From: Pseudomonadales bacterium
GTDB lineage: Bacteria > Pseudomonadota > Gammaproteobacteria > Pseudomonadales > JBFGWM01
Direction of reading: 5' to 3'
Assembly (NCBI GenBank): GCA_041682035.1
Contig: JBFKKR010000002.1
Span: 216-64,215, forward strand
DNA: 64,000 bases
The notes under the pieces are model-generated. The model had not been told where the DNA came from and did no database searches. It was given only the letters and a program-made list of their open reading frames with translations. Position numbers and translations under genes: made by a program. This document shows, piece by piece, positions 1,337-62,698 of this stretch (position 1 is its first letter; every line of letters starts with the position of its first letter).

Positions 1337-2491
1337 ATGACCAAACGCCGCTCTCTGTTGGTGCTAGGCGCGTTGGGCGTCGGTGCAGCAATGACCGCGG
1401 GTTACTGGAAGATTACGCGTCCATCCACAGAGCCGGCCCCGAAAGCACCACCGGCACCGCAGCCTTTCGATCCCGGCCGCACCGTGACGCTCGGATTCAT
1501 CTACGTCGGAGATCCGGCGGATGGCGGCTACAACCAGAGCCACGCGATGGCCGCCCGCGCACTGGGCGAACTGCCGTGGACGCGGGTGGTGGAGGCGGCG
1601 AACGTCGCCGAGGACGCCGGCGTCACGGCGGTCATGCAGCGCATGATCGAGAAGGACGGCGCCGAGTTCGTGTTCCCCACCTCCTACGGATACTTCGATC
1701 CGCACCTGCTGGCCTTCGCGCCGCGCTATCCGAAAGTCCGCTTCCTGCACACCGGCGGCCTGGCACTGCCCGGACATCCACCGAACATCAGCAGCAGTTA
1801 CGGCTACATCGACGAGGCCATGTTCCTGTGCGGGATCGTCGCCGCCCATGTCACCGGGGGCGCGGACCTCGGCTTCGTGGGCGCGATCCCGATCCCGGTC
1901 GTGCTGCGCAACATCAACGCGTTCACCCTCGGTGCGCGGCAGGTGCACCCGGATACCCGTGTGCACGTCCGGTTCACCGGCGGCTGGACCGTGCCCGAGG
2001 CGGAGCAGCAGCTCACCGCCGACCTGGTCGGGGCCGGGGCGCAGGCAATCGCCTGCCACGTGGACAGCCCTGTTCACGTCATGCGGCAATGCGAGGCACT
2101 GGGCGTTCACGCCATCGGCTATCACATCGACCAGTCGCAGAACGCGCCCGGGCAGTTCCTGACCGGCGCGGAGTGGCGCTGGCAGGGCATGTACGAGCAA
2201 TACCTTCGCAGGCACCTGCGGGGCGAGAGCTGGCCGACGATGTTCCGGGGCGGACTCGGGGATGGCATGGTGGCCCTCTCCGGGTTCGCAGAGGCGGTTC
2301 CCCCGGCGGCCCGGCAGGAGGTCGAGGCGCGGCTGCAGGATGCGCGGAAAAACCGGCTGCGCATCTACTCCGGCCCCATCCTCAGCAACGAGGGCGAGGT
2401 CATGATCCCGCAGGGCACCCACCGCAGCCAGGACGACCCCTGGCTCGAGACGATGGACTGGTTCGTGGAGGGCGTGGTGAACCCCGCCTGA
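1337..2491 (+). CDS. BMP-family (PnrA/Med-like) periplasmic substrate-binding protein, paralogue 1
   Basis: Tat-like signal TKRRSLLVLG. Motifs GFIYVG..DGGYNQSH, PTSYGYFDP and GYIDE. The C-terminus DDPWLETMDWFVEG is shared with the next ORF. Confidence 0.8.
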   Translation: MTKRRSLLVLGALGVGAAMTAGYWKITRPSTEPAPKAPPAPQPFDPGRTVTLGFIYVGDPADGGYNQSHAMAARALGELPWTRVVEAANVAEDAGVTAVMQRMIEKDGAEFVFPTSYGYFDPHLLAFAPRYPKVRFLHTGGLALPGHPPNISSSYGYIDEAMFLCGIVAAHVTGGADLGFVGAIPIPVVLRNINAFTLGARQVHPDTRVHVRFTGGWTVPEAEQQLTADLVGAGAQAIACHVDSPVHVMRQCEALGVHAIGYHIDQSQNAPGQFLTGAEWRWQGMYEQYLRRHLRGESWPTMFRGGLGDGMVALSGFAEAVPPAARQEVEARLQDARKNRLRIYSGPILSNEGEVMIPQGTHRSQDDPWLETMDWFVEGVVNPA

Positions 2492-2498
2492 AACCGCC

Positions 2499-3611
2499 AT
2501 GAAGAAGTTGTCCAGACGCAATCTGCTTCGCGCCGGGGGTATCTCGCTACTCGGACTCGCCGCCCTCTCCACCCAGCAGATCAGGGTCCGCCAGCAGGTG
2601 CAGGACGAGTTCCGCATCGGGTTCATCTACGTCGGCGCGCGTGACGACTTCGGCTACAACCAGGCCCATGCGATGGCCGCCGCCCGTCTCGCGCGGGAAC
2701 CGAACGTGCGCGTCTTCGAGCAGGACCGGGTGCCTGAAACTGAAGAGGTACTGGCGGTCATGCAGGGCATGATCGAAAACCACGGCGTGCAGGTCATGTT
2801 CCCGACCTCCTACGGCTACTTCGACCCCTACGTGCTGGAAGCGGCGCGCAGCAATCCGGAGGTGCACTTCGTCCACGCGGGCGGACTGTACCTCCCCGGT
2901 CATCCGCAGAACGTCAGTTCCTACTTCGGTTACATCGACGAAGGGATGTTCCTCGCCGGCATCGCCGCCGGCCACGTGACCCAGACCGGCCGACTGGGCT
3001 TCGTCGCCGCCATGAACATCCCCCACGTGCACCGCAACGTCAACGCGTTCCTGCTCGGCGCACGCACGGTGCAGCCGTTCGCCACGCTCGAGGTCCGTTT
3101 CACCGGCGGATGGTTCCTCCCCGAGGCGGAACGGGCCACCTGCAATGCATTGATCGATGCCGGCGCAGACGTCATGACCTGTCACGTGGACAGCCCGCGC
3201 GCGGTGATCGAGACCAGCGGCGGCCGCGGCGTCGCCTGCGTGGGGTACCACTCGGATCTCGCATCGCTGGCGCCGGAACATGTACTGACCAGTGTCCAGT
3301 GGGACTGGTGGCCACTGGTATCGGACTACCTGCGGAAACTGCGGGCGGGTGAGGAGATTCCCCACATGCAACGCCTCGGCATGCGGGAGGGTATTGTGGT
3401 GCTCGCGCCATTCGGACCGCGGGTGCCCCAGGCCGCGCGGCTGCAGATCGCCGGGATGCACCGGAAGTTCCTCGCCGGGCAGCACAGCGTCTACACCGGA
3501 CCGATCTACGACCAGTCCGGTGAGGTGCTGATCCCGACCGGCGTGCAGCGCGAACGGGACGACCCTTGGCTGGAAACCATGGACTGGTTCGTGAAGGGCG
3601 TGCAGGCTTGA
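2499..3611 (+). CDS. BMP-family periplasmic substrate-binding protein, paralogue 2
   Basis: Tat signal LSRRNLLRAGG. It carries the same motif set as 1337-2491 (clearly a tandem paralogue by eye) and starts 7 nt after it. Confidence 0.8.
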   Translation: MKKLSRRNLLRAGGISLLGLAALSTQQIRVRQQVQDEFRIGFIYVGARDDFGYNQAHAMAAARLAREPNVRVFEQDRVPETEEVLAVMQGMIENHGVQVMFPTSYGYFDPYVLEAARSNPEVHFVHAGGLYLPGHPQNVSSYFGYIDEGMFLAGIAAGHVTQTGRLGFVAAMNIPHVHRNVNAFLLGARTVQPFATLEVRFTGGWFLPEAERATCNALIDAGADVMTCHVDSPRAVIETSGGRGVACVGYHSDLASLAPEHVLTSVQWDWWPLVSDYLRKLRAGEEIPHMQRLGMREGIVVLAPFGPRVPQAARLQIAGMHRKFLAGQHSVYTGPIYDQSGEVLIPTGVQRERDDPWLETMDWFVKGVQA

Positions 3612-6145
3612 GCCGCAGCGCAATCCTCGGTCTTCTCCTGACGACACTCATCGGGGTGGCCGGTTCATTCGGCCTCTACCGCATGGCGATGCAGAGCATC
3701 GAGCGCGACGAGCGGGCGGTGTTCATGCGGCTGGCCACCGCGCGCAGCGGCGCCATCGCGCAGCGACTTATTTCGACCCAGGAGAGCGCCATGAACATGC
3801 ATGGCCTCTACAAGGCGTCGGATCACGTCGACCCGCACGAGTTCGAGTTGTTCGGCGATCTGCAGCACCGCAGGCACACGTCCGTCCACGCCCTGCAGTG
3901 GGTGCCGCACGTACCCGGCGGCGAGCGGGCCGCCTACGAGGAGAAAGTCTCGGCCATGCTGCGGACGCCCTTCCGCATCACGGAGATGAACCAGAATGGC
4001 CTGCTGGTGCCGGCCGCTGAACGTCCCGATTACCTGCCGGTGCAGTACGTGGTCCCCTTGAAGGTGAACAAGACGCTCCTGGGGTTCGACCATGGCAGTG
4101 AAGCGGTCGTCCGCAAGACCCTGGAACTGGCGCGGTCCAGCGGGCTCACCCAGGCCACCACGGCGGTCCGGCTGCCACAGGAGATCGACCCGGCGCCTGG
4201 CGTCCTGGTGGTGGAACCGGTGTACCGGGGCAGTCGCAGCACCAGTATCGACCGGCAGAAGAACCTGACGGGATTCGTCATCGCGGTGGTGCGCATCAAG
4301 ACCGTGCTGCAAAACGCCGTGCACAGCCTGAACCAGGCCGATGCACAGATTCACACCGCGCTGTACGACGTCACCAGCGGCGCGGAGCGGTTCCTGTACA
4401 GCTACGGATCCAGTCCGGCCCGGCCCGTTTCCCCGGAATGGTTGCAGGAGACGATCGTGAACTTCGCTGGTCGCACCTGGGCCGTACGCAACCAGCCCAA
4501 CCTGCCCCTGGTGACAGGCATGCAGTGGCAGCCCCTGAGCATGCTGCTGGGCATGCTGACGCTGACGACGGTCGTCTCCATATTCATCTTCACGTTGATG
4601 TACCGGGAACAGCTGGTGTCCATCGCGGTCGCCGAGCGCACCCGCGAACTGCGGCGCAGCGAAGCCCGCATCCGCGGCCTCCTCGACACCGCCACCAACG
4701 CGATTTTCATCCTCGATGACGGCGGGCGCATCGAGAGCAGCAACCAGGCCGCGAACCGCCTGTTCGGCGACGAGGACGATGGCGGGCTGCCTGCGCATTT
4801 CGCCGAACTGTTTCCGGGTGTGCCCGAGAAGCAGCTCCTGCAGGCCTCCAACCAGGAATTCCAGGTCGTCCTGAGAGACCAGGAAAGGCGCTACCTGCAG
4901 GTCTCGGTCAGCAGCACCGGCGCCGAGGGCCAGCAGTCGCGCATCGCCGTCCTGAACGACGTCACGCTCAGGCGCCGCATGGAGAACAACGAGCGCGAGC
5001 AGAAGCTGCTGCTGCAGAACATCATGCGGTCTATGGATGAAGGTCTGCTGGTGTCGCGCGCCGGCCATCCGCTGATGGTCAACCCCAAGACCGAGTCGCT
5101 GTTTCCGAACGCATCCGCGCTGGTCCGGTCCAGGCCGGTGCCCAACCAGGTCGGCTGGCTGGACCCGGAAACGCTGGAGCCGATCCTCGAGGAGAGCCTG
5201 CCGCTGCACCGCATCCTCGTCGGCGAGGAAGTGCAGAACGAGGAGTATTTCATCCAGAACGAGTACCAGCCCGAGGGCGTCCATGTCGAAGTGACCGGCA
5301 ATGCGCTGCTTGACGCGGGCATGCGGCGCATCGGCGCGATGGTGGTGCTGCGTGACATCTCCCACCGCAAGGCATACGAGCGCAGGCTGCAGGAGACCGC
5401 CGCCCAGCTGGCACTCAGCAACCAGGAACTGGAGAGCTTTGCCCGCGCGGCCTCGCACGACCTGCAGGAACCCCTGCGCAAGGTGCAGCGCTTCGGCTCC
5501 CTGCTGCGCATGTCGCGCGCCGACCAACTGGACGAACAGGGGCTGGATTTCCTCGACCGCATGATCAATGCCGCCGACCGCATGTCCGCGCTGATCGACG
5601 GCCTGCTGACGCTGGCGCGGGTCACCTCCAAGGCCGCGCCGTTCTCCTCGACGCGCCTGAATACGGTGCTCAGCGAGGTACTGGAGGACCTGCAGATCCG
5701 GATCGAGGATACCGGCGCCGAGATCGACGCCGGTTCGCTGCCGACCATCGACGCGGACCCGGTGCAGATGCGCCAGCTGTTCCAGAACCTGATCAGCAAC
5801 GGCCTGAAATACCAGCCCGAGGGCAACCGGCCCAAGATCACCATACGCGCGGAACAGCTGATCCGGGCCCGACCGGTCGAGCACCGCTGCTGGAAGCTGA
5901 CCTTCCAGGACAACGGCATCGGCTTCGCACAGGAAGACGCGGGCCGGATTTTCGGCGTGTTCTCGCGCCTGCACGGCCGCGGCGAATACGAGGGCTCCGG
6001 CGTCGGCCTGTCCATCTGCCGCAAGATCGCCGAGCGACATCATGGCGAGATCAGCGCCACCTCGGTGCCGGGCGAGGGCGCCACCTTCACGGTCATCCTG
6101 CCGGAAAATCAGCCCGGCGCCGCCCGCACCCCGGAACCGGCATGA
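3566..6145 (+). CDS. Sensor histidine kinase: TM, periplasmic CHASE domain, TM, 2x PAS, HisKA, HATPase_c. No receiver domain.
   Basis: CHASE-like segment (LQWVPHV..ERAAYE..LPVQYVVPL). H-box FARAASHDLQEPLRKV. G-box GSGVGLSICRKIAERHHGEI. An alternative start at TTG 3608 would overlap the upstream stop as TTGA. Confidence 0.85.
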   Translation: MAGNHGLVREGRAGLSRSAILGLLLTTLIGVAGSFGLYRMAMQSIERDERAVFMRLATARSGAIAQRLISTQESAMNMHGLYKASDHVDPHEFELFGDLQHRRHTSVHALQWVPHVPGGERAAYEEKVSAMLRTPFRITEMNQNGLLVPAAERPDYLPVQYVVPLKVNKTLLGFDHGSEAVVRKTLELARSSGLTQATTAVRLPQEIDPAPGVLVVEPVYRGSRSTSIDRQKNLTGFVIAVVRIKTVLQNAVHSLNQADAQIHTALYDVTSGAERFLYSYGSSPARPVSPEWLQETIVNFAGRTWAVRNQPNLPLVTGMQWQPLSMLLGMLTLTTVVSIFIFTLMYREQLVSIAVAERTRELRRSEARIRGLLDTATNAIFILDDGGRIESSNQAANRLFGDEDDGGLPAHFAELFPGVPEKQLLQASNQEFQVVLRDQERRYLQVSVSSTGAEGQQSRIAVLNDVTLRRRMENNEREQKLLLQNIMRSMDEGLLVSRAGHPLMVNPKTESLFPNASALVRSRPVPNQVGWLDPETLEPILEESLPLHRILVGEEVQNEEYFIQNEYQPEGVHVEVTGNALLDAGMRRIGAMVVLRDISHRKAYERRLQETAAQLALSNQELESFARAASHDLQEPLRKVQRFGSLLRMSRADQLDEQGLDFLDRMINAADRMSALIDGLLTLARVTSKAAPFSSTRLNTVLSEVLEDLQIRIEDTGAEIDAGSLPTIDADPVQMRQLFQNLISNGLKYQPEGNRPKITIRAEQLIRARPVEHRCWKLTFQDNGIGFAQEDAGRIFGVFSRLHGRGEYEGSGVGLSICRKIAERHHGEISATSVPGEGATFTVILPENQPGAARTPEPA

Positions 6146-6492
6146 ACAGGGGGCAATGGCAACCGGTATTCGAGAGCACCGCGCTCCCCGGCGGCGCGGC
6201 ACGCGAGTTCTGGGTGCAGGGCGTGGCCGGCTTCGCGCTGCGCCTCCACGGCCACCTGGGGGCGTTCGTCAACCACTGCCCGCACCAGGGCCTGCCCCTG
6301 AACTGGCGCCCGCACGACTTCCTGTCCGTGGACCGCCTGCACATCGTCTGCGCCAATCACGGCGCGGTGTTCGACTGCTACAGCGGCCACTGCCTGGGCG
6401 GTCCCTGCGCGGGCGGCGGGCTGGCGCCCTGGGACGTCCGCGAGCAGGACGGCATGATCGAGGTGTGTACGCCGCCCCCGCCGTTCCGCTGA
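6142..6492 (+). CDS. Small Rieske [2Fe-2S] domain protein
   Basis: 116 aa with CPH...CANH (a CxH / CxxH ligand pair). The ATG overlaps the kinase stop as ATGA (6142-6145). Confidence 0.75.
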   Translation: MNRGQWQPVFESTALPGGAAREFWVQGVAGFALRLHGHLGAFVNHCPHQGLPLNWRPHDFLSVDRLHIVCANHGAVFDCYSGHCLGGPCAGGGLAPWDVREQDGMIEVCTPPPPFR

Positions 6493-7951: not shown

Positions 7952-9058
7952 ATGCCAAAGGGCACGAAATCCACGACCAAGAAGACCGGCGCCAGCCGCC
8001 AGGCCACCACCGCCAAGAGCAGCCGGGCCGCCCGGCCAGCCAGAAGCGCCGCGGCTCGCAAGCCCGCCGCAAAGAAGACCGCCACCTCGGCCCGGACGAC
8101 AACGAAAAAACCCGCCCCGCGCAAGAGCGCGGCAGCATCCGTCAAAGAAGCAGTAGCGAAGGCAGTGAAGAAAGTATCCAGCAAGCGGACCGCAACCACC
8201 CCGGCCAAGAAGACCTCCACGGCACGCAAGCCGACGACGGCCGGCAAGACCGCCGCCAGCAAGACCCGGCGCACGACGACGGCCAAGGCTGCCACGCGCA
8301 AGCCGGCCACGAAGGCCAAGGCCGCAGCCGCCGGCAAGGCGAAGACCACGGCACGGGCGGCCACCAAGACCAAGGCGACCGCGAAAAAGACCCCGGTCAG
8401 GAAAACGGGCGCTGCCAGCAGCAAGCCGGCGGCCAAGGCGGCTGCGCCGGCGAAGCCGTCCCGCGCCAGGGCGGCCGCCGCGAAGACGACAACGCGCAAG
8501 CCCTCCGGCACCGCGCGCAAGCCCGCCGCGACCAAGGCCCCGGCGAAGGCTGCCGCCACGCAGAAGAAGCCGGCGGCGCGGAAACCGGCCGGCAGCGCGC
8601 GCCCGAACCCACGGCGCGCCTCGGCGAGCATCCTGTCGGGCCCGATGATGTCGGAAATCCAGCCCTACAAGTCGAAGTCGAACGAAGAGTACATGTCGCG
8701 CGAGCAGCTCGAGCACTTCTCGCAGATTCTCCTGAAGTGGAAGCAGGAACTGATGCAGGAAGTGGATCGCACCATGATCCACATGAAGGAAGAGGCGGCG
8801 AACTTTGCCGACCCGAGCGACCGCGCCACCCAGGAGGAGGAGTTCAGCCTGGAGCTGCGCACCCGCGACCGGGAGCGGAAGCTGATCCGGAAGATCGATG
8901 ACACGCTCGATCTGATCGACCGGGAAGACTACGGTTATTGCGAATCCTGCGGCGTCGAGATCGGCGTCCGTCGCCTCGAGGCACGCCCCACCGCCACGCT
9001 CTGCATCGACTGCAAGACCCTGGCCGAGGTGAAAGAGCGGCAGGTCGGCGGCCGCTAG
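7952..9058 (+). CDS. dksA: RNA polymerase-binding factor DksA with a ~228-aa Lys/Ala/Thr-rich N-terminal extension
   Basis: The C-terminal ~140 aa are near-identical in pattern to E. coli DksA (FADPSDRATQEEEFSLELR, CESCGVEIGVRRLEARPTATLCIDC). ATG 7952 is preceded by GGGAGG. One frame runs uninterrupted through the basic low-complexity region. Confidence 0.8.
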   Translation: MPKGTKSTTKKTGASRQATTAKSSRAARPARSAAARKPAAKKTATSARTTTKKPAPRKSAAASVKEAVAKAVKKVSSKRTATTPAKKTSTARKPTTAGKTAASKTRRTTTAKAATRKPATKAKAAAAGKAKTTARAATKTKATAKKTPVRKTGAASSKPAAKAAAPAKPSRARAAAAKTTTRKPSGTARKPAATKAPAKAAATQKKPAARKPAGSARPNPRRASASILSGPMMSEIQPYKSKSNEEYMSREQLEHFSQILLKWKQELMQEVDRTMIHMKEEAANFADPSDRATQEEEFSLELRTRDRERKLIRKIDDTLDLIDREDYGYCESCGVEIGVRRLEARPTATLCIDCKTLAEVKERQVGGR

Positions 9059-10155: not shown

Positions 10156-11190
10156 ATGAAGCGGCAGGCGCCTGCCCGACCGGATTCCACGCCGACGACC
10201 GTACCGTCCTCTTTCCACGGCATGATCGGCGCGTCGCCGCCCATGCAGGCCGTATTCCGTTATATCGAGCGCGCTGCGCCCACCGACGCCACCGTGCTGA
10301 TCAGCGGTGAAACCGGCACCGGCAAGGAACTGGCGGCGCGTGCGCTGCACGCCCTGAGCAATCGTGACAGCGGCGAATTCATCGCGGTGAACTGCGCGGC
10401 CATCCCGGAAACCCTGGTGGAGGCCGAACTGTTCGGTAACGAGAAGGGCGCGTTCACCGGCGCCGTCAGCAAGCGGCGCGGCCTGGTGGAGGCCGCTGAC
10501 CGCGGCACGCTGTTCCTTGACGAGGTGGGCGAACTGCCACTGGAGGCGCAGGCCCGGCTCCTGCGGGTATTGCAGGAAGGCGAGATCCGGCGCGTCGGCG
10601 CGACGCGCACCAACACGGTCAACGTCCGTATCATCGCCGCAACCCACCGCAACCTGTCCGCCCTGGTGCAGGAGGGTCGTTTCCGCGAGGATCTCTACTT
10701 CCGGCTGAACGTGCTGTCGATCCGCATGCCGCCCCTGCGCGAACGCGCCGAGGACATCCCGGCCCTCGCCGAAAGCCTGCTGCGTCAGCACGCGGCGGGC
10801 CTGCAACGGCCGGTCCGTGGCTTCGAGAGCGAGGCGCTGCGGACGCTGTGCCGGGCGCCGTGGCGCGGCAACGTGCGGGAACTGGACAACGTCATCCACC
10901 GCGCCTGCATCCTCAGCGACAGCCCGGTCATCGCGCAGGGTGATCTGCAGTTCGACGGCGAAGGGGAAGCTGGCGCCGATGACGGCCACGATGTCGCCGA
11001 CTGGCCCCGGCAACTGAGCCTGGAGCAGTACGTGGAGCACTTCCTGCTCGCCAACCAGCACCACATGACCGAGACCGAGATTGCCCAGAACCTGGGCATC
11101 AGCCGCAAGTGCCTGTGGGAGAAGCGTCAGAAACTGGGCATTCCGCGCCGCCAGGCCAGCGAGCGGCGGGGCGAGACGGAACGCGCGTGA
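10156..11190 (+). CDS. Sigma-54-dependent transcriptional activator (bEBP) with an AAA+ domain and Fis-type HTH only. No receiver or sensory domain.
   Basis: Walker A GETGTGKE, GAFTGA loop, Walker B FLDEVG, C-terminal HTH IAQNLGISRKCLWEKRQKLGI. An in-frame TAG at 10036-10038 limits any N-terminal extension to 39 codons. Confidence 0.9.
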   Translation: MKRQAPARPDSTPTTVPSSFHGMIGASPPMQAVFRYIERAAPTDATVLISGETGTGKELAARALHALSNRDSGEFIAVNCAAIPETLVEAELFGNEKGAFTGAVSKRRGLVEAADRGTLFLDEVGELPLEAQARLLRVLQEGEIRRVGATRTNTVNVRIIAATHRNLSALVQEGRFREDLYFRLNVLSIRMPPLRERAEDIPALAESLLRQHAAGLQRPVRGFESEALRTLCRAPWRGNVRELDNVIHRACILSDSPVIAQGDLQFDGEGEAGADDGHDVADWPRQLSLEQYVEHFLLANQHHMTETEIAQNLGISRKCLWEKRQKLGIPRRQASERRGETERA

Positions 11191-34554: not shown

Positions 34555-36489
<1,935 letters not shown>

Positions 36490-36594
36490 GTCGTTCAAAA
36501 TTGCACCCTCACTGCCGGGCGGTCCCCACCGGGGAACCGTCCTCAATATTTCCTGAATTTCAGCTTACACCAGAAGCCCTGTCGCAACCGAACC

Positions 36595-37269
36595 CTACGC
36601 GCCACGGTAACCGCGCGCGAGATAGTAGGTTTCGCGGGACCGGTCCCGCGACGCACGTGGCTTGCGCGTCTTCAGCTGTTCGAACAAGTCCTTGATCTCT
36701 GTGCGAAATGCTTCAATGCCCTCGCCCTGGAACACTTTGACAAGCAAATCCCCGCCGGGTTTCAGGTGTTCCCGCGCGAATTCGAGGGCCAGTTCGGCCA
36801 GCAGCATGGCGCGGGGCTGGTCGATCGCCTTGTTACCACTGATATTGGGGGCCATATCGGACATTACAAGGTCCAGCCGGCGGTCTCCAAGGGCGGCCCG
36901 TATGCCGGCCAGCGCCGCCTCCCCGGTGAAATCACCCTGGATGAAAGCCACCTCGGGCAGCGCATCCATGGGCAGGATGTCGCTGGCGACCACCAGCCCG
37001 CCGGGGCCGACCCAGTCAGCCGCCAGCTGCGACCAGCCGCCCGGCGCGGCGCCGAGGTCCATCACGGCCATGCCCGGCCGGATGATCCGGTCCTTCTCCT
37101 GGATCTCGATCAGCTTGAAGGCGGCGCGGGACCGGTAGCCCTCCCGGCGTGCCGCCTGCACGTATGCATCCGCCTCGTGCTCGTCGATCCAGCGCTGGCT
37201 GCTGCCTGTCCGCTTCGCCACGCCCACTCTCCACGCAACAACGATTTGACTTCGCGCCCGGATTGGCAA
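36595..37269 (-). CDS. rlmE: 23S rRNA (U2552-2'-O)-methyltransferase RlmE/FtsJ
   Basis: SSQRWIDEH..YRSRAAFKL and DLGAAPGGWSQ. The true start may be GTG 37221. Confidence 0.9.
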   Translation of the reverse strand: MPIRARSQIVVAWRVGVAKRTGSSQRWIDEHEADAYVQAARREGYRSRAAFKLIEIQEKDRIIRPGMAVMDLGAAPGGWSQLAADWVGPGGLVVASDILPMDALPEVAFIQGDFTGEAALAGIRAALGDRRLDLVMSDMAPNISGNKAIDQPRAMLLAELALEFAREHLKPGGDLLVKVFQGEGIEAFRTEIKDLFEQLKTRKPRASRDRSRETYYLARGYRGA

Positions 37270-37329
37270 AGGCTCTCACCGAGCCGTGCCTGCCGACGGC
37301 CGCCTCCATTTTACTGTGTGCTGGCGGTG

Positions 37330-39633
37330 ATGATGAAAAAACTCCTGCTGCTGGTCCTGGTCGTCGTCATCGGCATCCCCGCCCTCCTCTTCGGGTGGAT
37401 CCTGGTCGACCGGGAACTGAACCCCACCACCTTCGAGACCATCGGCGAATACAGCCAGGCGCCGATCCCGCCGGAGCGCCGCCGGGATGCCGCGCTGCGG
37501 CAACAGGCCGCCCGCAGTGCACTCGGCGTCGCCGACGGCCGGCAGATCCTGTTCGGCGACCTGCACGTGCACACCACTTTCTCCATCGACGCCTTCACCT
37601 GGAGTCTGCCATCCATGCACGGCACCGGCCTGCACCCGCCGGCGGACGCCTGCGATTACGCGCGGTTCTGCTCCCAGCTGGATTTCTGGTCCACCAATGA
37701 CCACTCGGAAGGACTGACGCCGCGCCACTGGGAAATGATCCGCGACAACGTCAATCAATGTAACGCGCTGTCGGGCGACCCCGCCGACCCGGAAATGGTG
37801 ACCTTCCTCGGCTGGGAGTGGACCCAGATGGGCAACACGCCCGAGGCGCATTACGGCCACCGCGTGGTGGTGATGAAGGACGAGGAGCGCGAGCGGACGC
37901 CGGCGCGGCCGATCATGTCGGGCGGGCTGGCGGTGAGCGCCATGCGCAAGGACTCCATCCCGCCGCTGCAGAAGCTCACCGCGCCCTATCTCGGCATGCC
38001 ATTCAATGCCGAGAACCGCCAGATGCTGCGCAACCTCTACGCCAAGCAGGATTACCTGCGCGCGCAGGAACTGTGCAGCAACGACGTGCCGTCGCCCGAC
38101 CTGCCGCAGAACTGCATGGAGTACGCCGACACGCCGGGCGACCTGCAGCGCAAGCTGCGCGAGTGGGGTTTCCCGGCGCTGGTCATCCCGCACGGCACCA
38201 CGTGGGGCTACTACACGCCCCCCGGCACGAAGTGGGACAAGCAGCTCAGCCGCGACATGCACGACCCGGCGCTGCAGGCCCTGATCGAGGTGTTCTCCGG
38301 ACACGGCAATTCCGAGGAGTACCGCGACTGGCGGGCCGTGGATTTCGCCGCGGACGGCTCGATGTCCTGCCCGGAGCCCACCGGCGATTACACACCGTGC
38401 TGCCATCGCGCCGGCGAGATCATCCAGTCGCGCTGTGAGGACCCGTCCTCGACGGAATGCGCGGCCCGCGTGGCAACAGCCGAGATCAATTACCTGCAGG
38501 CCGGCCGGGGCGGCCGGCTGACGGTGCCTGACGTGGCGCCGGAGGAATGGCTGAACTGCGGCCAGTGCACCGACTGCTACATGCCCGCCTTCAATTTCCG
38601 GCCCGGAAATTCCGTGCAGTACATCATGCAGCTCGCCAACCACGCCGAGCAGGACGCCAACGGCGATCCGTTGCGGTTCCGCTTCGGTTTCATCGGCTCC
38701 AGCGACAACCACCTGGCGCAACCGGGCGTGGGCTACAAGGAAGTGGACCGGCACCTGAACACCGATACTTCCGGCCTCGCCACGAAATTCCTGAACGACC
38801 AGCTGCACCGTGTCGCCGAACCGCAGACCGATCCGCGCCACTCGGTGGCACTGGATTTGGAAAACACGCCCTTCAATTTCCTGCAGGTCAACGAGTCGGA
38901 ACGGCAGTCCGCGTTTTTCATGACCGGCGGGCTGGTGGCAGTCCACAGCCCCGCGCGTGACCGCGACACGATCTTCAGCGCTTTGCAGCAGAAAGAGGTG
39001 TACGGCACTTCCGGCCCGCGCATCCTCCTGTGGTTCGACCTGCTGCAGCCGGACGGCACCACGCTGCCCATGGGCAGCGGGCTGAAGACCGGCGCCGCGC
39101 CGCGCTTCCGGGTCCGCGCCGCCGGTTCCTACGTCCAGAAGCCGGGCTGCCCGCAGGAGAGCATCGATGCGCTCGGCGCGGAACGGCTGGAGCACATGTG
39201 CGGCGGGGAATGCTACAACCCCGGGGACGCACGCATCCCGATCGAGCGCATCGAGGTCGTTCGCATCCGCCCGCGCCTGAACGACAGCGAGCCGGCCGGC
39301 CGGCTGATCGAGGACCCGTGGAAGGTCATCCCCTGCGACACCGGCGCCGACGGCTGCAGCGTGGAGTTCAGTGACCCGGAATACGCCACCGCGGGCCGCG
39401 ACACGCTCTACTATGTGCGCGCGCTGCAGGTCCCCACGCCGACGGTCAACGGCAAGCCGCTGCAGTGCGTGAAGGAGGACGCCAACGGCCGTTGCGCCGA
39501 GGTGAAGATCTGCTGGGGCGACCAGCGTACCGAACTGGACGATGACTGCCTGGAAGATGTCAGCGAGCGCGCCTGGTCCTCGCCGATCTTCCTGGATTAT
39601 GCCCGGGTTTCCGCAGCGCCCCCGACGGACTGA
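37330..39633 (+). CDS. DUF3604-like / PHP-type metal-dependent phosphoesterase-like protein with an N-terminal membrane anchor
   Basis: 767 aa. MMKKLLLLVLVVVIGIPALLF, GDLHVHTTFSIDA, FWSTNDHSE and FLGWEWTQ. The family call is from memory of the DUF3604 motif pattern. Confidence 0.6.
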   Translation: MMKKLLLLVLVVVIGIPALLFGWILVDRELNPTTFETIGEYSQAPIPPERRRDAALRQQAARSALGVADGRQILFGDLHVHTTFSIDAFTWSLPSMHGTGLHPPADACDYARFCSQLDFWSTNDHSEGLTPRHWEMIRDNVNQCNALSGDPADPEMVTFLGWEWTQMGNTPEAHYGHRVVVMKDEERERTPARPIMSGGLAVSAMRKDSIPPLQKLTAPYLGMPFNAENRQMLRNLYAKQDYLRAQELCSNDVPSPDLPQNCMEYADTPGDLQRKLREWGFPALVIPHGTTWGYYTPPGTKWDKQLSRDMHDPALQALIEVFSGHGNSEEYRDWRAVDFAADGSMSCPEPTGDYTPCCHRAGEIIQSRCEDPSSTECAARVATAEINYLQAGRGGRLTVPDVAPEEWLNCGQCTDCYMPAFNFRPGNSVQYIMQLANHAEQDANGDPLRFRFGFIGSSDNHLAQPGVGYKEVDRHLNTDTSGLATKFLNDQLHRVAEPQTDPRHSVALDLENTPFNFLQVNESERQSAFFMTGGLVAVHSPARDRDTIFSALQQKEVYGTSGPRILLWFDLLQPDGTTLPMGSGLKTGAAPRFRVRAAGSYVQKPGCPQESIDALGAERLEHMCGGECYNPGDARIPIERIEVVRIRPRLNDSEPAGRLIEDPWKVIPCDTGADGCSVEFSDPEYATAGRDTLYYVRALQVPTPTVNGKPLQCVKEDANGRCAEVKICWGDQRTELDDDCLEDVSERAWSSPIFLDYARVSAAPPTD

Positions 39634-41159: not shown

Positions 41160-42878
41160 TTATTTCTTTTTCTCTTTCGGTCCGCAGTTCACCAGCCCGG
41201 GGTGATCGGCTTCCTTTTCCCTGCCCTGTGATTTCACCGGGCCGCAGTGCCGGTCCGGGTCGGCGCCATCATCGCCATTTTCCCAGTCGGGCCAGCCCTC
41301 GTCATTCACCCGCACGATGAAGAACCCGGCAAAACCGTCCGTGTACCAGATCTCCTTGCGCTCCGGAAAAAACGCCGGCGCCGACATGGCCCAGTTGCTG
41401 GCGGTCACGTAGGGCGTGAAACGCGGCGGGATGGCCGGATTGAAGTAGGCCGTCTCGACCGGGTTGGCCGGATCACGGATGTCGAACACGCGCAGGCCGG
41501 AGACGATCATCCCGCAGGCGACGATGGTGGGGTTGTCGCGGGTGGGCACGGCGCAATAGTGCCCGGCATAACCCTGCACCGGCGGCTGCGCGCCCGGGTC
41601 GTTGGCGATCGCGGCGCGGTTCTCCGGTTCGTGCACGGCGAGGCGCAGGTCGGAGAGCACCTTGGGGTTGGCGGGATCCGCGATGTCGATGATGCGCGCG
41701 GCGCCGACGCGCGGACCGTGGGCCGCCACGCTGCCGCCTCCCGCGGGCTGGGAGAACTCGTCCACCTCGATGACATAATCACGGCCCTGGATCGTGACCG
41801 GAATCGCATTCTGTGGAATGGTCACGTTGTCCCAGGTCACGTAACCGATCTCGGTCACGTTCGGCTCGCTGGTCCGGCCACTGGGATCCTGACCGGGGAA
41901 TGGGTGGCCGAATTTCGTCGGATCACCGGCCGCCGCGTTCACCTCGCTGACATCCAGGATCAGCAGTCCGCTGCCCTGGTCCTTGAACTGGCTTTCATCG
42001 TTGTCGCGCGGCGTGTAGGCCAGATAGGCGGTGTTCCCGTCGTTGCTGATGTTCATGCCGTGCACCGAGTAGGGCCCGGTCCAGATGGGACGCGGCTGGA
42101 ACGGCTCGGTGATATCCACGGCGGTGAGCGTCGGCGTGGAAGGCGATGCCGACCAGAAGATGCGCCCGTCCGGCGACATGCCGCCCTCGTGTCCGAACAC
42201 ACCCACCGGGGCAGAGGCCCTCAGTTCCGGCTCCGTGCAGTTGGCCGACAGGTCGTAGACATCCACCACGCCCGGACCGAGCGAGGGGTTGCCGAGGACG
42301 GCGGCCAGGATGCCCTTCTCCTCCGACAGCACCAGGGACTCGTGCGGAGACAGCATGGCCGGGGTGCGCAGCGTGGTGGCATATTTCAGGGTCGGCTCGC
42401 CAGCCGCGTCCCGGCTGACCTGAAGAACATTCACGCCGCCCTCCAGGTCGAAGATATTCGTCGGGTACAGCAGCGTGGAGTCATAGATCGCGCACTCGTT
42501 GCCCTGGCTGTCGACGTAGCGGTGGGTCTTGAAGCCCCCGACCGAGCCGGTCGGGTCCAGTCCGGTATTGCTGCCGCGCACCGTGAACTGCGCGAGCGCC
42601 CGGGTGTTGCAGGTGATGTCCTGGTCGGAGCCGGCGGGCCGGCCGTCCGGCAAATGCCCCGCGTAGGTCTGCTGCTGGGAGAACGCGCCGGTGAACCGGC
42701 GCCCCTGCATGCCGCCCGCCGCCGCCGAAGGCTCCGGGTTGTCTCCTGCCGAGCAACCGGCAATCACCTGTGCCGACTGGGGCGTCGGGGCGGCCACGAC
42801 GCCCGGCGACAACCCGGCCAGGAGCCCGGCCAGCAGAAGGAAAGGAACGACTTCAATACGGATGCTTGCTTGTTTCAT
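41160..42878 (-). CDS. Secreted beta-propeller protein with LVIVD-type repeats
   Basis: Signal peptide LLLAGLLAGLSPGVVAA. Recurrent hydrophobic-D-x-x-x-P segments: VVDVYDLS, LTAVDITEP, LLILDVSE, ARIIDIADPANP and LRVFDIRDPANP. Confidence 0.55.
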   Translation of the reverse strand: MKQASIRIEVVPFLLLAGLLAGLSPGVVAAPTPQSAQVIAGCSAGDNPEPSAAAGGMQGRRFTGAFSQQQTYAGHLPDGRPAGSDQDITCNTRALAQFTVRGSNTGLDPTGSVGGFKTHRYVDSQGNECAIYDSTLLYPTNIFDLEGGVNVLQVSRDAAGEPTLKYATTLRTPAMLSPHESLVLSEEKGILAAVLGNPSLGPGVVDVYDLSANCTEPELRASAPVGVFGHEGGMSPDGRIFWSASPSTPTLTAVDITEPFQPRPIWTGPYSVHGMNISNDGNTAYLAYTPRDNDESQFKDQGSGLLILDVSEVNAAAGDPTKFGHPFPGQDPSGRTSEPNVTEIGYVTWDNVTIPQNAIPVTIQGRDYVIEVDEFSQPAGGGSVAAHGPRVGAARIIDIADPANPKVLSDLRLAVHEPENRAAIANDPGAQPPVQGYAGHYCAVPTRDNPTIVACGMIVSGLRVFDIRDPANPVETAYFNPAIPPRFTPYVTASNWAMSAPAFFPERKEIWYTDGFAGFFIVRVNDEGWPDWENGDDGADPDRHCGPVKSQGREKEADHPGLVNCGPKEKKK

Positions 42879-42923
42879 GCGACTTCACTTCAATCGGGCT
42901 TGCAATGCAGGACAGCGCCCAGT

Positions 42924-44399
42924 ATGCACTGGCTAAATCTTGAGCGGAAGCCGCGCGCAACGCGACCAGCGGTGCTGATTACACTGTGCGCGGCGACACC
43001 GGCCCTCGCACACGTGTTCGGCAGCACCTACACCCCGCCCGTCCCGGTGGTTTATTACCAGGCCGGCGCGGCGGCCGCGCTCCTGCTTTCCTTCGTCGTC
43101 GCCGCGTGGTTGTTGCGCTCACCCACACTGTCGCGATCCGGCGGTTCAGTCTCAATCTCGCTGGATCGCGCTCCGAAACCAACTCGGTTCCTGGTGCTGT
43201 GCCTACAGCTGGCCGGTGTCGCGCTGCTGCTGCTGGCGGTCTGCAGTGGATTCCTCGGCACGCCCAACCCTTACCTCAACTTCAGCATGACCGGCTTCTG
43301 GGTCGTATTCGTGCTCGGCTTCCTCTACGCGCACGTGGTGTTCGGCAATCTGCTGGAGCCGCTCAATCCCTGGCGGACGGTCTGCACCTGGAGCGGCAGG
43401 CTGGCGCCGGGCATGTTTCGCGGCAGGCTGCGCGACCCGGCCCGGTACGGGTACCTTCCCGCGCTGGTGCTCTACATCGCGTTCATCTGGTTCGAACTGT
43501 ATGGCGCGGGCGCACCAGTCCATACCGCACGCCTGCTGCTCGGCTATACGATCGTCTGCCTGGCCGGCGCCTTGATCTGGGGCGTGCCTGGCTGGCTGCG
43601 CTACGGGGAATTGTTCTCGGTGCTGTTCCGGCTGGTCTCGCACCTGGCGCCGCTGGCACGGTGCGGCGGGACGCTGATCCTGCGCTGGCCGCTGGCAGGA
43701 CTGCTGCGGGCGCGCACCGACGGGCTGTCACACCTGCTGTTCATCCTGTTCATGCTGGCCTCGACCGCGTTCGACGGCCTGCAGTCGATGATCTCCTGGC
43801 TGGAGATGACATGGAGTTTCCTGCGCGCCGCGCTGGCCGACGCCGTCGCCGCCAACCCTGCCGGGGCGGTGAGCCTGCTGCAGACCGCCTTCAAGGTGTA
43901 CCACGGTGTCGGGCTGGTGCTGGCGCCGTTCTGGTATTTCCTCGTCTACCAGCTGGCGCTGGCGCTGGCGCGGGCGATCGCCGGCAGCCGGCACAGCTTC
44001 CGCGACTGGCTGCTGGCATTCGGCATGTCCCTGGTGCCGATCGCCGTGGTGTACCACGCAGCCCATTACTACACGCTGCTGCAGGTGCAGGGGCTAAAAG
44101 TGTTCCCCCTGCTCTCGGACCCGTTCGGCCAGGGCCGCGACCTGCTGGGCACCCTGCACTGGTTCCACCGGCCGATCTATCCCGATCCGCCGACCGTCTG
44201 GAACGCACAGGTAGCGCTGATCCTGCTGGGGCACCTGCTGGGGGTGCTGGTCGCACACATCGCCGCGCTGCGGTTGCTGCGTGGCACCTGCAGCCGGCCA
44301 CGCCTGATCGCCAGCCAGCTGCCGCTGCTGCTGCTGATGGTGGTGCTGACCGTGTTCGGGCTGTGGATCCTGGCGCAGCCGGCCGCGACGGGGCGGTGA
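42924..44399 (+). CDS. Hypothetical polytopic membrane protein (about 10-12 TM), family not recognised
   Basis: 491 aa taken from the tail of the 1050-aa ORF in the track. The signal-like N-terminus ends ..TPALA|HVFG. It is divergent from 41160-42878 with a 45-bp spacer. Confidence 0.55.
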   Translation: MHWLNLERKPRATRPAVLITLCAATPALAHVFGSTYTPPVPVVYYQAGAAAALLLSFVVAAWLLRSPTLSRSGGSVSISLDRAPKPTRFLVLCLQLAGVALLLLAVCSGFLGTPNPYLNFSMTGFWVVFVLGFLYAHVVFGNLLEPLNPWRTVCTWSGRLAPGMFRGRLRDPARYGYLPALVLYIAFIWFELYGAGAPVHTARLLLGYTIVCLAGALIWGVPGWLRYGELFSVLFRLVSHLAPLARCGGTLILRWPLAGLLRARTDGLSHLLFILFMLASTAFDGLQSMISWLEMTWSFLRAALADAVAANPAGAVSLLQTAFKVYHGVGLVLAPFWYFLVYQLALALARAIAGSRHSFRDWLLAFGMSLVPIAVVYHAAHYYTLLQVQGLKVFPLLSDPFGQGRDLLGTLHWFHRPIYPDPPTVWNAQVALILLGHLLGVLVAHIAALRLLRGTCSRPRLIASQLPLLLLMVVLTVFGLWILAQPAATGR

Positions 44400-60336: not shown

Positions 60337-60816
60337 ATGAACAAAAAGCAGAAAAGCAATACCAGCGCGACCATCGCGCAGAACCGCAAGGCGCGGCACG
60401 ACTACCACCTGCGCGAACGCCTGGAAGCCGGCCTGGTGCTGGAGGGCTGGGAGGTGAAAAGCCTGCGGGCGGGCAAGGTGCAGCTGGTGGACAGTTACGT
60501 GCTGCTGAAAGGCGGCGAAGCCTTCCTGCTGGGCGCGCTCATCACGCCACTGACCAGCGCGAGCACGCACCGTGAAACCGACCCGACCCGCACCCGCAAA
60601 CTGCTGCTGCACCAGGAGGAACTCGCCCGGATCCACAACGCCACGCAGGCCAAGGGCATGGCCTGTATCCCGGTTTCCCTCTACTGGAAGAAACAGCGCG
60701 TGAAATGCGAGATCGCGCTGGCCGAGGGCAAGAAGGACTTCGACAAGCGCGAGGACATGAAGAAGAAAGACTGGGACCGCCAGCGCGCCCGCATCATGCG
60801 GAGTCAGAATCGCTGA
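60337..60816 (+). CDS. smpB: SsrA-binding protein SmpB
   Basis: [28 protein letters not shown] and RTRKLLLHQ. Confidence 0.93.
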
Positions 60817-62698
60817 CCCCGGGACGCTGCAGGCAGACGATGAACACGCTGCCCTCGCCCGGCGTGGACTCGATCGTCAGCCTGCCCCGGTTCCGTTCCA
60901 CGATCCGCACCACGGTGGCCAGGCCCAGCCCGAATCCCTCGTATTCCGCGCTGGAATGCAGCCGCGTCAGCGGCTTGTGGATTTGCGCCAGGTACTTGTT
61001 CTCGATCCCGATGCCGTTGTCGCGAACGATCACCTCGACGGTGGACGGCGTCGGGCCCGGCCGCGAGCTGATCTCCACCCGCGGCGTGCGCTCGCAGAAC
61101 TTCAGCGCATTGGCGATGAGATTCTGGAATACCTGGCGCATGTCGCCCGCATTGGACCAGACCACCGGCAGGTCCCCGACGACGACCTCGGCGCCGCGCT
61201 CTGCGACCTCCTGGTCCAGCATTTCGAGCACATCCTCCAGCACGGCGCGCAGGCGCACTTCCCCGGCCTCGGTGGGGGCGTCGGCGCTGGCGTAGCTGAG
61301 CAGGCGCGAGATGAGTTCCAGCATGAATCCCGACAGGCGCTGGATCGCTGCGAGGTGGGCCTCAACCGATTCGGAGCGCTCCCCGAGCTTCCGACGCACC
61401 AGGTCCACGAAGGCGCCGATCTTGCGGGCCGGGGATTTCAGGTCGTGGGCGGCGACGGCGGCAAACTGGGACAGCGCCTCGTTGCTGGCGCGCAGCTTGT
61501 CCTCGGCCTCGCGGCGACGCTGGATGCTCTGCAGGGAGCCGGACACGTACACGTGACCGTCCGCGGCGCGGCTCGCGACCCCCTTGATCCCGAACCAGCG
61601 GTATTCGCCGGCGCCGGTCCGCATGCGGCATTCGACCTCGAACGCATCCAGCGCGCCCCTCGCCTGCTCGAAGCGGGTCTTCACCTCCAGCCGCCGCTCT
61701 TCTTCGACAAGCTCAAGCACCTCGTCCATGCTCGCGGGCAGTTCGCTGATCTTTATACCCAGCAGCCGGCTGACCTGGAACGACATCCACAGCCGGGTCC
61801 CGCCCCCGACCTGCCACTCCCAGAGGCCGTCCCGGGAGCCGTCCACCGCGCGCTGGAAGCGTTCCTCGCCGCGCGCCACGGCCAATTGCAGATCGAGCTC
61901 GCGCTGTGAGCGGGCCAGGTCCCGCTCGGACTCACTGAGCAGATCCTGCACCCGCAGCAACAACCGCCCCAGCAGGATCAACATGGGGTTGGCGATCAAC
62001 AGGAAGATCAGCAGATCCGGCGCGCCCTGGCGGGTGGAGAAATAATCCCACTGCGGCAGCATGCGCACCAGCGCCATCGTCGACACGATGAACCAGACCG
62101 CCCAGCAGGCTTTCTCGGAAACCTGCCGGGGCAGGAATACGAGGAACGAGAAGTAGAGCACCGCGTGATAGCCGAAGAGCGGCATGAACATGGACAGGTC
62201 TTCCCGGCGGCTGGATGGCCCGTACAGCAGGGAGCCCTCGCGATAGAGAAAGAAGACGGCCAGGCAGCCGCACATGAAGTAGCTGGCCACCATGAGGCGG
62301 CTTGCATCCCGCCAGAGCCAGATGCCCAGCCCCGAGAGCAGCAGCGCGAACACCAGGCCCAGGTAGTGCTCGTTCTGGAACAGCCCCGGGTTGGCGGCCA
62401 TCACCTTGGTTCCGGCCAGGAAGTTCAGGATGACCAGCGGCAGGAAATAAAGAAGCGCGATACGCCGGTACCGCTCTTCCCGGGAGACGCCCGCTCCCTT
62501 GGCCTGGTCAGCCAAGGACCTGTTCCGGCATGTTGGGTGTTGCCATTCTCGATCCCGAAAGCATCCCTGACAGTCTAGCAATCCCTCAAAAGCGCCCACC
62601 ACGCGGTTTACGGGAAACATACGTAGGTGTTCTGCCCGCCAGCCCATATATTGAATGGATGGGAAAGGTGACGACGTTGTTTGGGCTGCTGCTCGCAC
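60794..62698 (-). CDS. Sensor histidine kinase: N-terminal multi-TM domain, coiled coil, PAS, HisKA, HATPase_c. No receiver domain.
   Basis: H-box [16 protein letters not shown] and G-box [20 protein letters not shown]. The start is uncertain (ATG 62698, ATG 62620 or TTG 62515). The 3' end overlaps the smpB 3' end by 23 nt. Confidence 0.85.

Follow-up and report, generated by a model that had tools for sequence, protein, structure and literature searches.

A Conserved Four-Gene Unit Pairing Two Bmp-Family Binding Proteins with a CHASE Histidine Kinase in Uncultured Pseudomonadales

A 64,000-nt stretch from one contig of a Pseudomonadales bacterium genome, hereafter the window, carries near its start a four-gene unit that encodes two periplasmic binding proteins of the Bmp family, Bmp1 and Bmp2, a histidine kinase with a periplasmic CHASE domain, and a Rieske [2Fe-2S] protein. 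The unit is real and conserved and is apparently undescribed; no description of a Bmp–CHASE kinase pairing was found in the literature searched. We tentatively favor the reading that Bmp1 and Bmp2 may serve the CHASE kinase specifically, as its co-sensors in the periplasm, a possibility that we judge to be close to evenly balanced. This reading is based on the conserved translational coupling of the genes, the absence of nearby transporter genes, the separate clade that the kinase-linked Bmp proteins form, and binding pockets that are constrained but altered. Very little is known of what bacterial CHASE sensors bind or how they are activated, and the unit is a testable candidate for a receptor with co-receptors. 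Related loci and contigs that were compared with the window are designated by L-numbers (L001 and so on).

All four genes lie on the + strand. The first, bmp1 (1337–2491), encodes 384 aa and is followed after 7 nt by bmp2 (2499–3611), which encodes 370 aa; both products match PF02608. The kinase gene (3608–6145) encodes, in order, a transmembrane segment, the CHASE domain, a second transmembrane segment, two PAS domains, HisKA, and HATPase_c. The CHASE domain (PF03924) spans positions 3821–4399, corresponding to residues 86–278 of an 859-aa open reading frame (ORF). This ORF has two candidate starts, TTG 3566, which gives a 46-nt overlap with bmp2, and TTG 3608, which gives a 4-nt overlap (TTGA). 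The start is likely TTG 3608, because the gene calls of five related contigs (L001, L002, L003, L017, and L019) have the 4-nt overlap between bmp2 and the kinase gene. The 845-aa protein that begins at TTG 3608 is also present as a protein-database entry (P0124, 100% identity and coverage), and the form beginning at 3566 is absent. The Rieske gene (6142–6492; 116 aa, PF00355) starts with an ATG that overlaps the kinase stop codon (ATGA). No + strand terminator-like site was found inside the unit, and the four genes most likely constitute one operon. The G+C content is ~66–71% across the first 10 kb of the window. A preliminary description of this DNA had reported the two paralogues 7 nt apart and a kinase overlap of 4 or 46 nt, and both observations hold, with the gene calls of relatives now favoring 3608. 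It had limited the unit to three genes, however, and had overlooked the conserved Rieske gene.

The order Bmp1–Bmp2–CHASE kinase, whose co-conservation had been proposed as a check on the preliminary description, is found again on eight further contigs, namely L001 (a contig also designated L008), L002, L003, L009, L016, L017, L018, and L019. Some of these contigs are truncated, and together they represent ~six species-level lineages. Identity to the window copies ranges from 81 to 50% for Bmp2, from 75 to 57% for Bmp1, and from 70 to 36% for the CHASE sensor. The overlap between bmp2 and the kinase gene is retained at all six readable junctions. Each of the five contigs that reach past the kinase gene (the window, L001, L003, L009, and L019) has the Rieske gene next, with homologues at 8398–8736 in L001, 7883–8206 in L003, and 4331–4687 in L019. 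Because the flanking genes vary among the related contigs, the conserved unit is the four genes and not the wider neighborhood. A DUF4112 gene, for example, lies near the unit in some relatives and is missing in others. In most relatives, the Bmp genes are immediately preceded by a divergent three-gene cluster (L001 1577–3032, L002 5177–6568, L003 1364–2767, and L016 3865–5194) that encodes an extracytoplasmic function (ECF) sigma factor, a 112–117-aa protein with a faint DUF3619 match, and a 140–161-aa protein. In the window, the immediate neighbors of the operon are instead the DUF4112 gene and a gene for an AAA_33 kinase. The ECF sigma cluster was considered as a further part of the unit and was rejected, since it is absent from the window.

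The assignment of Bmp1 and Bmp2 to the Bmp family is secure by profile search. Against PF02608 (gathering cutoff of 24.1 bits), Bmp1 scores 103.9 bits (E = 1.1e-29) and Bmp2 scores 126.7 bits (E = 1.2e-36); the two proteins are paralogues with 47.8% identity. The closest solved structures to Bmp2 by sequence are 3S99 (E = 3.8e-47) and AtzT (6PI5, E = 4.4e-45), and PnrA is matched by sequence at an E value of only 3e-4. Fold comparison with a model of Bmp2, which shows the two-lobed fold of solved Bmp proteins, likewise sets AtzT and 3S99 ahead of the nucleoside binders. The AlphaFold2 model of Bmp2 has a predicted local distance difference test (pLDDT) score of 92.7. In a Foldseek search with this model, AtzT is the best match, with a target-normalized template modeling (TM) score of 0.92 and a root-mean-square deviation of 2.0 Å, followed by 3S99 with a TM score of 0.90. 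The nucleoside binders Lbp, BmpD, and PnrA have target-normalized TM scores of 0.74–0.84, and all 22 of the top 22 matches in the Protein Data Bank (PDB) are Bmp-family structures.

The binding pocket was examined at nine positions (45, 97, 98, 139, 165, 169, 194, 218, and 220 in AtzT numbering), which were mapped onto 132 family sequences. At these positions, Bmp1 has the signature Y-S-Y-M-V-N-W-H-D and Bmp2 has Y-S-Y-M-H-N-W-H-D. Tyr45, Ser97, Asn169, Trp194, His218, and Asp220 are kept throughout the mapped sequences, and the aromatic sandwich formed by Tyr45 and Trp194 is present together with Ser97 in Bmp1, Bmp2, and all of their orthologues. Position 165 differs between the groups. All 109 family members outside the kinase-linked clade have glutamine there, whereas the residue is valine in 8 of 8 Bmp1 sequences and histidine in 7 of 7 Bmp2 sequences; the glutamate that AtzT has at this position is absent. 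Pocket residues are clearly constrained within each paralogue. Among 135 columns conserved in the family, 124 are retained and 11 are consistently changed in the kinase-linked clades. With 11 of 135 conserved columns altered, Bmp1 and Bmp2 look like intact binding proteins that carry a targeted change at a ligand contact, with the two paralogues differing from each other. A neighbor-joining tree without bootstrap support values places the kinase-linked Bmp1 and Bmp2 sequences in a single clade of 21 tips, within which the Bmp1 orthologues are monophyletic. This topology suggests that a single recruitment, followed by duplication, gave rise to the Bmp1/Bmp2 pair.

The closest solved relatives offer a guide to the ligand. 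AtzT binds guanine (KD of 0.11 μM), ammeline, adenine, and 2-hydroxyatrazine (PMC6834077). Its ligand sits between Tyr45 and Trp194, receives hydrogen bonds from Ser97, Glu165, and Asn220, and contacts Asn218; the deposited 3S99 model contains adenine (PMC6834077). AtzT (6PI5/6PI6) and the Brucella protein 3S99, which belong to the cluster B-I base and triazine binders, are the best matches to the window proteins at E values of ~1e-45 and ~31% identity. The Tyr/Trp sandwich, Ser97, and Asn169 are shared with AtzT, and the His/Asp pair at positions 218 and 220 matches 3S99. AtzT differs in being encoded in an ABC (ATP-binding cassette) operon, atzRSTUVW, and in using Glu165 to hydrogen bond guanine; the window proteins have valine (Bmp1) or histidine (Bmp2) at this position and methionine in place of Thr139. 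Because Glu165 and Thr139 are replaced, Bmp1 and Bmp2 are unlikely to share the ligand of AtzT. A small planar nitrogen-rich compound (a base, a triazine, or a ureide-like molecule) is more plausibly the ligand than is a nucleoside. The purine nucleoside or cytokinin ligand entertained in the preliminary description finds little support here. PnrA is a distant relative, and the nearest proteins of known structure are binders of free purine bases or s-triazines. In addition, the nearest sequence relatives are found in biuret-hydrolase ABC operons, and the key hydrogen-bonding residue of the pocket is unlike that of any of these proteins.

Both proteins have an N-terminal twin-arginine motif of the form RR-x-hydrophobic-hydrophobic. 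The Bmp1 N-terminus has TKRRSLLV followed by a hydrophobic segment and a proline-rich linker, and the Bmp2 N-terminus has LSRRNLLR. The two arginines are conserved in orthologue N-termini with a called start, and R6/R7 are nearly invariant in an 80-sequence alignment. Profile scores stay under the cutoff: Bmp2 reaches 11.6 bits with PF10518, whose cutoff is 22.7, Bmp1 has no PF10518 match, and TIGR01409 gives no match. The twin-arginine signals of the preliminary description therefore stand as a conserved motif and not as profile hits, and they do not set the pair apart. Of 120 family members, 99 have the motif, and some of these are linked to transporters. Export by the twin-arginine translocation (Tat) pathway is plausible, but as a trait of the family rather than one special to Bmp1 and Bmp2. 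Classical Bmp proteins are lipoproteins; no lipobox cysteine was found in the N-terminus of Bmp1 or Bmp2.

The unit places binding-protein genes beside a kinase gene with no transporter of their own nearby. The preliminary description had seen no permease, ATPase, or response-regulator gene adjacent to the kinase, and this absence extends across the whole window. Searches with phmmer, seeded with sequences from transporter-linked relatives, found no Bmp-type permease or ABC ATPase in the 64 kb, and none was found on the eight related contigs. Similarly, a hidden Markov model (HMM) built from seven receiver-domain (REC) sequences and run with filters off detected no receiver domain in the window. 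One candidate for an output partner, a sigma54 (NtrC-type) activator encoded 4 kb downstream of the unit at 10156–11190, was rejected, because it has no receiver domain by Pfam and therefore cannot be the phospho-acceptor in this genome. This activator (+ strand, 344 aa) lies downstream of gluQ and gives no Response_reg match. Its counterpart in L001 is also short (321 aa), with no Response_reg on record, and the positional counterpart in L009 (10083–11426, 447 aa) combines a Response_reg domain with AAA+ and HTH_8 domains. The receiver domain looks to have been lost in one sub-lineage.

The nearest relatives in sequence are transporter-linked. Proteins with 46–49% identity head operons of the form Bmp/permease/permease/isochorismatase/ABC ATPase (L004, L007, L020, and L021), usually with an allophanate hydrolase gene near. 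The embedded isochorismatase matches 6AZO and 5BK6 at ~1e-120, 6XJM (deposited as "Biuret hydrolase") at 4e-107, and 6XIX and 6XJ4 at 1e-64. We take 5BK6 and 6AZO to be Rhizobium BiuH entries and 6XIX and 6XJ4 to be the triuret hydrolase TrtA. Judged by these matches, the embedded enzyme is BiuH-like. Clusters of biuH, trtA, and atzF are independently reported to collocate with bmpA-nupABC transporters (PMC12625717). These biuret/triuret importers (bmpA-nupABC with biuH, trtA, and atzF) are the closest sequence relatives of the window proteins and share with them the twin-arginine signal and the pocket scaffold. The importers, however, are encoded in permease/BiuH/ATPase operons, whereas no transporter or catabolic gene lies near the window copies, in which the otherwise invariant pocket glutamine is replaced.

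A second architecture links Bmp proteins to CHASE kinases at six loci (L005, L006, L011, L022, L023, and L024), which are on unrelated metagenomic contigs, one of them from a Planctomycetota metagenome-assembled genome (MAG). Here, a monocistronic Bmp gene encoding a general secretory (Sec)-type signal stands between two gene groups. One encodes a CHASE hybrid kinase together with a sigma54 response regulator, and the other is a biuret-type ABC operon. CHASE kinases are associated with the Bmp family twice. The idea that the Bmp protein in these loci is an extra copy dedicated to the sensor was rejected, as the gene in the binding-protein slot of the adjacent ABC operon looks like an outer-membrane barrel. 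The slot protein (362–394 aa) has a signal peptide and a C-terminus of the form ...GFG[IV]NF and matches neither a Pfam family nor the Bmp HMM. It is encoded at 4896–6080 (−) in L005, 1080–2168 (−) in L022, and 3246–4334 (−) in L023; L020 has a Tsx channel in that place. The slot protein probably represents an undescribed outer-membrane channel family for biuret-like solutes. Because the slot gene is barrel-like, the adjacent Bmp protein is the only binding protein of the transporter. The sigma54-type architecture does not discriminate sensing from transport, and it can also be explained as a regulator positioned beside its target operon. Shared ancestry of the Bmp-linked CHASE sensors is unsupported, as the sensors of the two architectures occupy separate deep branches. 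Separately, L005/L011, L022, L023, and L024 contain a recurrent cluster that comprises the CHASE hybrid kinase, the sigma54 response regulator, the monocistronic Bmp gene, and the porin-like gene and continues with two permeases, a BiuH-like gene, an ATPase, and often an allophanate hydrolase. This cluster is a candidate CHASE-controlled biuret-utilization regulon; no description of a CHASE kinase–biuret operon cluster was found in the literature searched.

These relatives give substance to an alternative in which Bmp1 and Bmp2 are orphan binding proteins that serve a distant ABC importer, with the kinase sensing independently through its CHASE or PAS domains. Co-transcription would then co-regulate uptake capacity and sensing, and a mixed version would assign the Bmp proteins a dual role in transport and signaling. 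The whole of the wider Bmp family is transporter-associated, and in the sigma54-type architecture the Bmp protein beside the CHASE kinase is the only binding protein of the transporter. Since 124 of the 135 conserved positions are kept, a permease-docking surface could be intact in Bmp1 and Bmp2, and gene adjacency does not prove interaction (PMC11113362). Against this alternative stand the lack of any permease or ATPase within 64 kb or on the eight related contigs, the conservation of the 4-nt overlap between bmp2 and the kinase gene over ~six lineages, and the placement of the kinase-linked copies in a separate clade with a changed ligand-contact residue. We consider a distant importer unlikely to be the explanation.

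The sensor region of the kinase was characterized by profile and structure searches. The preliminary description had recognized the periplasmic module as CHASE-like from the sequence, and the profile search that it called for agrees: PF03924 matches with an E value of 3.5e-38 over residues 86–278, covering profile positions 1–189 of 189. Hydrophobic segments visible in the translation flank the domain on both sides. Downstream, Pfam identifies PAS (3e-09), PAS_4 (4.6e-08), HisKA (3.3e-09), and HATPase_c (6.9e-28). The combination of HisKA and HATPase_c is that of a class I histidine kinase, the H-box SHDLQEPL and the motifs DNGIG and GSGVGL are visible, and no receiver domain was found in the kinase by Pfam. 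The only PDB sequence match for the sensor region is the CHASE structure of PcrK (6K62), and it is weak and partial (E = 0.011). PcrK of Xanthomonas campestris is a cytokinin-sensing CHASE histidine kinase that is reported to bind its ligand directly and that has a cognate regulator, PcrR (PMC7072313). It is the only solved bacterial CHASE sensor; its pocket is closed, and a periplasmic factor, itself unidentified, has been put forward as what opens it (PMC7072313). Both PcrK and the window kinase are bacterial histidine kinases that sit in the membrane and have their CHASE domain in the periplasm; PcrK differs in its direct ligand binding, in having PcrR as its regulator, and in having no known binding protein.

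Direct binding of the signal by the window CHASE domain, with the Bmp proteins acting as ligand buffers or scavengers or as operon products that make no contact with the kinase, would accord with the only documented CHASE mechanism (PMC7072313). The full-length, strong CHASE profile match is compatible with this alternative, as is the fact that the other sampled CHASE kinases work without a Bmp neighbor. However, it offers no reason for the maintained translational coupling of two diverged binding proteins to the kinase in a setting that lacks all transporter genes, and it does not account for pocket residues that are clearly constrained within each paralogue. We regard it as quite improbable.

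The lineage that carries the unit is rare and uncultured. A search of ~5.8 billion protein clusters with the full-length kinase returned five clusters, at 62–100% identity, all from MAG or Logan assemblies. Scans of genomes and metagenomes for CHASE kinases, which used narrow peptide patterns and returned eight loci each, found no further Bmp-linked CHASE kinases. It is very improbable that no functional link exists and that the gene order is a lineage-specific accident inherited by descent: all operonic examples do belong to a single group of order rank, made up of uncultured Pseudomonadales MAGs, and the number of full-length kinase clusters is only five, but order, orientation, and the 4-nt overlap persist despite divergence of the sensor to 36% and of Bmp2 to 50% identity, while the flanking genes vary (the ECF sigma cluster and DUF4112).

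The co-sensor reading has precedents in other binding-protein families. LuxP/LuxQ and TorT/TorS are binding-protein-dependent sensor kinases in which the binding protein docks on the periplasmic sensor domain. As in the window, a binding-protein gene without its own transporter adjoins a gene for a membrane histidine kinase. These systems differ from the window unit in using other binding-protein families and non-CHASE sensors and in having one binding protein and no Rieske partner; docking on the sensor is known for them and is a prediction here. Within the Bmp family itself, Med (2HQB), deposited as "transcriptional activator of comK gene", matches Bmp2 with an E value of 7.4e-8 and a target-normalized TM score of 0.89 by Foldseek. 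Med is a precedent for a Bmp-family member in regulation, and it was not deposited as a transporter component. It differs in having only ~20% identity and no CHASE kinase partner, and it is a Gram-positive lipoprotein. The activation of sensor kinases by binding proteins is established, and genes for solute-binding proteins (sbp genes) often lie beside those of their kinases (PMC8050422). In Pseudomonas aeruginosa, GltB is required for ligand-dependent activation of GtrS-GltR (PMC7927077; reviewed in PMC8050422) and is the model for one binding protein having roles in transport as well as signaling. GltB, however, is encoded with the transporter of a glucose ABC system, whereas the window unit has no transporter nearby and combines the Bmp family with a CHASE sensor.

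Several points weigh against the co-sensor reading. The CHASE domains with a known ligand, those of AHK4 and PcrK, bind it directly (PMC7072313), and products of adjacent sbp and kinase genes from P. aeruginosa gave no detectable binding (PMC11113362). A 2021 review lists 13 binding-protein families known to activate receptors, and Bmp is not among them (PMC8050422); the words "Bmp" and "CHASE" are both absent from this review of binding-protein signaling, and the pairing is without precedent. The transporter search covered one contig of this genome, and a Bmp-type ABC importer may lie elsewhere. Nor do the CHASE sensors of the two Bmp-linked architectures group as sisters. Finally, all seven of the more distant CHASE kinases with at least ~5 kb of flanking sequence have no Bmp neighbor, indicating that Bmp linkage is not a general property of CHASE kinases.

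With these points taken into account, a signaling module of the kind that the preliminary description proposed remains the best reading, drawn as it is from gene organization. The model that we infer for it comprises an export route, a ligand class, a contact between the Bmp proteins and CHASE, and a role for the Rieske protein. Bmp1 and Bmp2 would be exported to the periplasm, probably via the Tat pathway. Each would probably capture a small planar nitrogen-rich molecule in its aromatic-sandwich pocket, with purine or other N-heterocyclic bases, s-triazines, and biuret-like ureides as candidate ligands, and the two proteins likely differ in specificity. The liganded Bmp proteins would dock on the periplasmic CHASE domain and shift the balance between the autokinase and phosphatase activities of the kinase. 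From there, the signal would run via both cytoplasmic PAS domains into the HisKA/HATPase core, which would pass it on to an unlinked response regulator. The Rieske protein, being co-translated, may be a cytoplasmic accessory that provides, for example, a redox input.

The Rieske protein matches PF00355 with an E value of 6e-10 and has no obvious N-terminal signal sequence. The cluster ligands in C46-P-H48 (CxH) and C70-A-N-H73 (CxxH), together with C84 and C89, are invariant in the five aligned sequences. It is unusual for a histidine kinase to have a Rieske protein as its invariable partner. A bolder version of the model, which we hold to be rather doubtful, is that the unit would be the first binding-protein-gated CHASE receptor, in which the two Bmp proteins, with their different pockets, present two related nitrogen-rich molecules, either purine-like or ureide/triazine-like, to the one kinase and the Rieske protein supplies a redox input via the PAS domains. 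Were this version true, the periplasmic molecule that is proposed for PcrK could be sought among Bmp-type proteins as a candidate class, and bacterial CHASE sensing would not be restricted to direct ligand binding. Since Bmp1 and Bmp2 are related to binding proteins of the biuret and triazine type, the unit may be a sensor of nitrogen-rich small molecules and a possible biosensor scaffold, albeit one limited to a rare lineage of uncultured bacteria.

The rest of the window is occupied by core housekeeping genes (pcnB, panBC, pgi, acs, pnp, truB, infB, nusA, glmM, folP, carAB, dapB, dnaJK, grpE, and recN), and these neighbors give no hint of a regulon. A second histidine kinase gene lies at 60794–62698 (−) and encodes a 634-aa protein with PAS_3, HisKA, and HATPase_c; no receiver-domain gene was detected near it within the window. 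Two further ORFs encode large proteins without an assigned function, one of 1506 aa with a partial DUF3604 match only (35113–39633, +) and one of 1050 aa with coding-like codon bias and no Pfam match at an E value of 1e-5 (41247–44399, +). At 7952–9058 (+), a DksA homologue has DksA_N and the dksA/traR zinc finger at residues 252–358, preceded by an N-terminal extension of ~250 aa that contains little besides Ala, Lys, Thr, Ser, Arg, and Pro. This highly basic, low-complexity extension coincides with a strong AT-skew spike at 7.5–9 kb.

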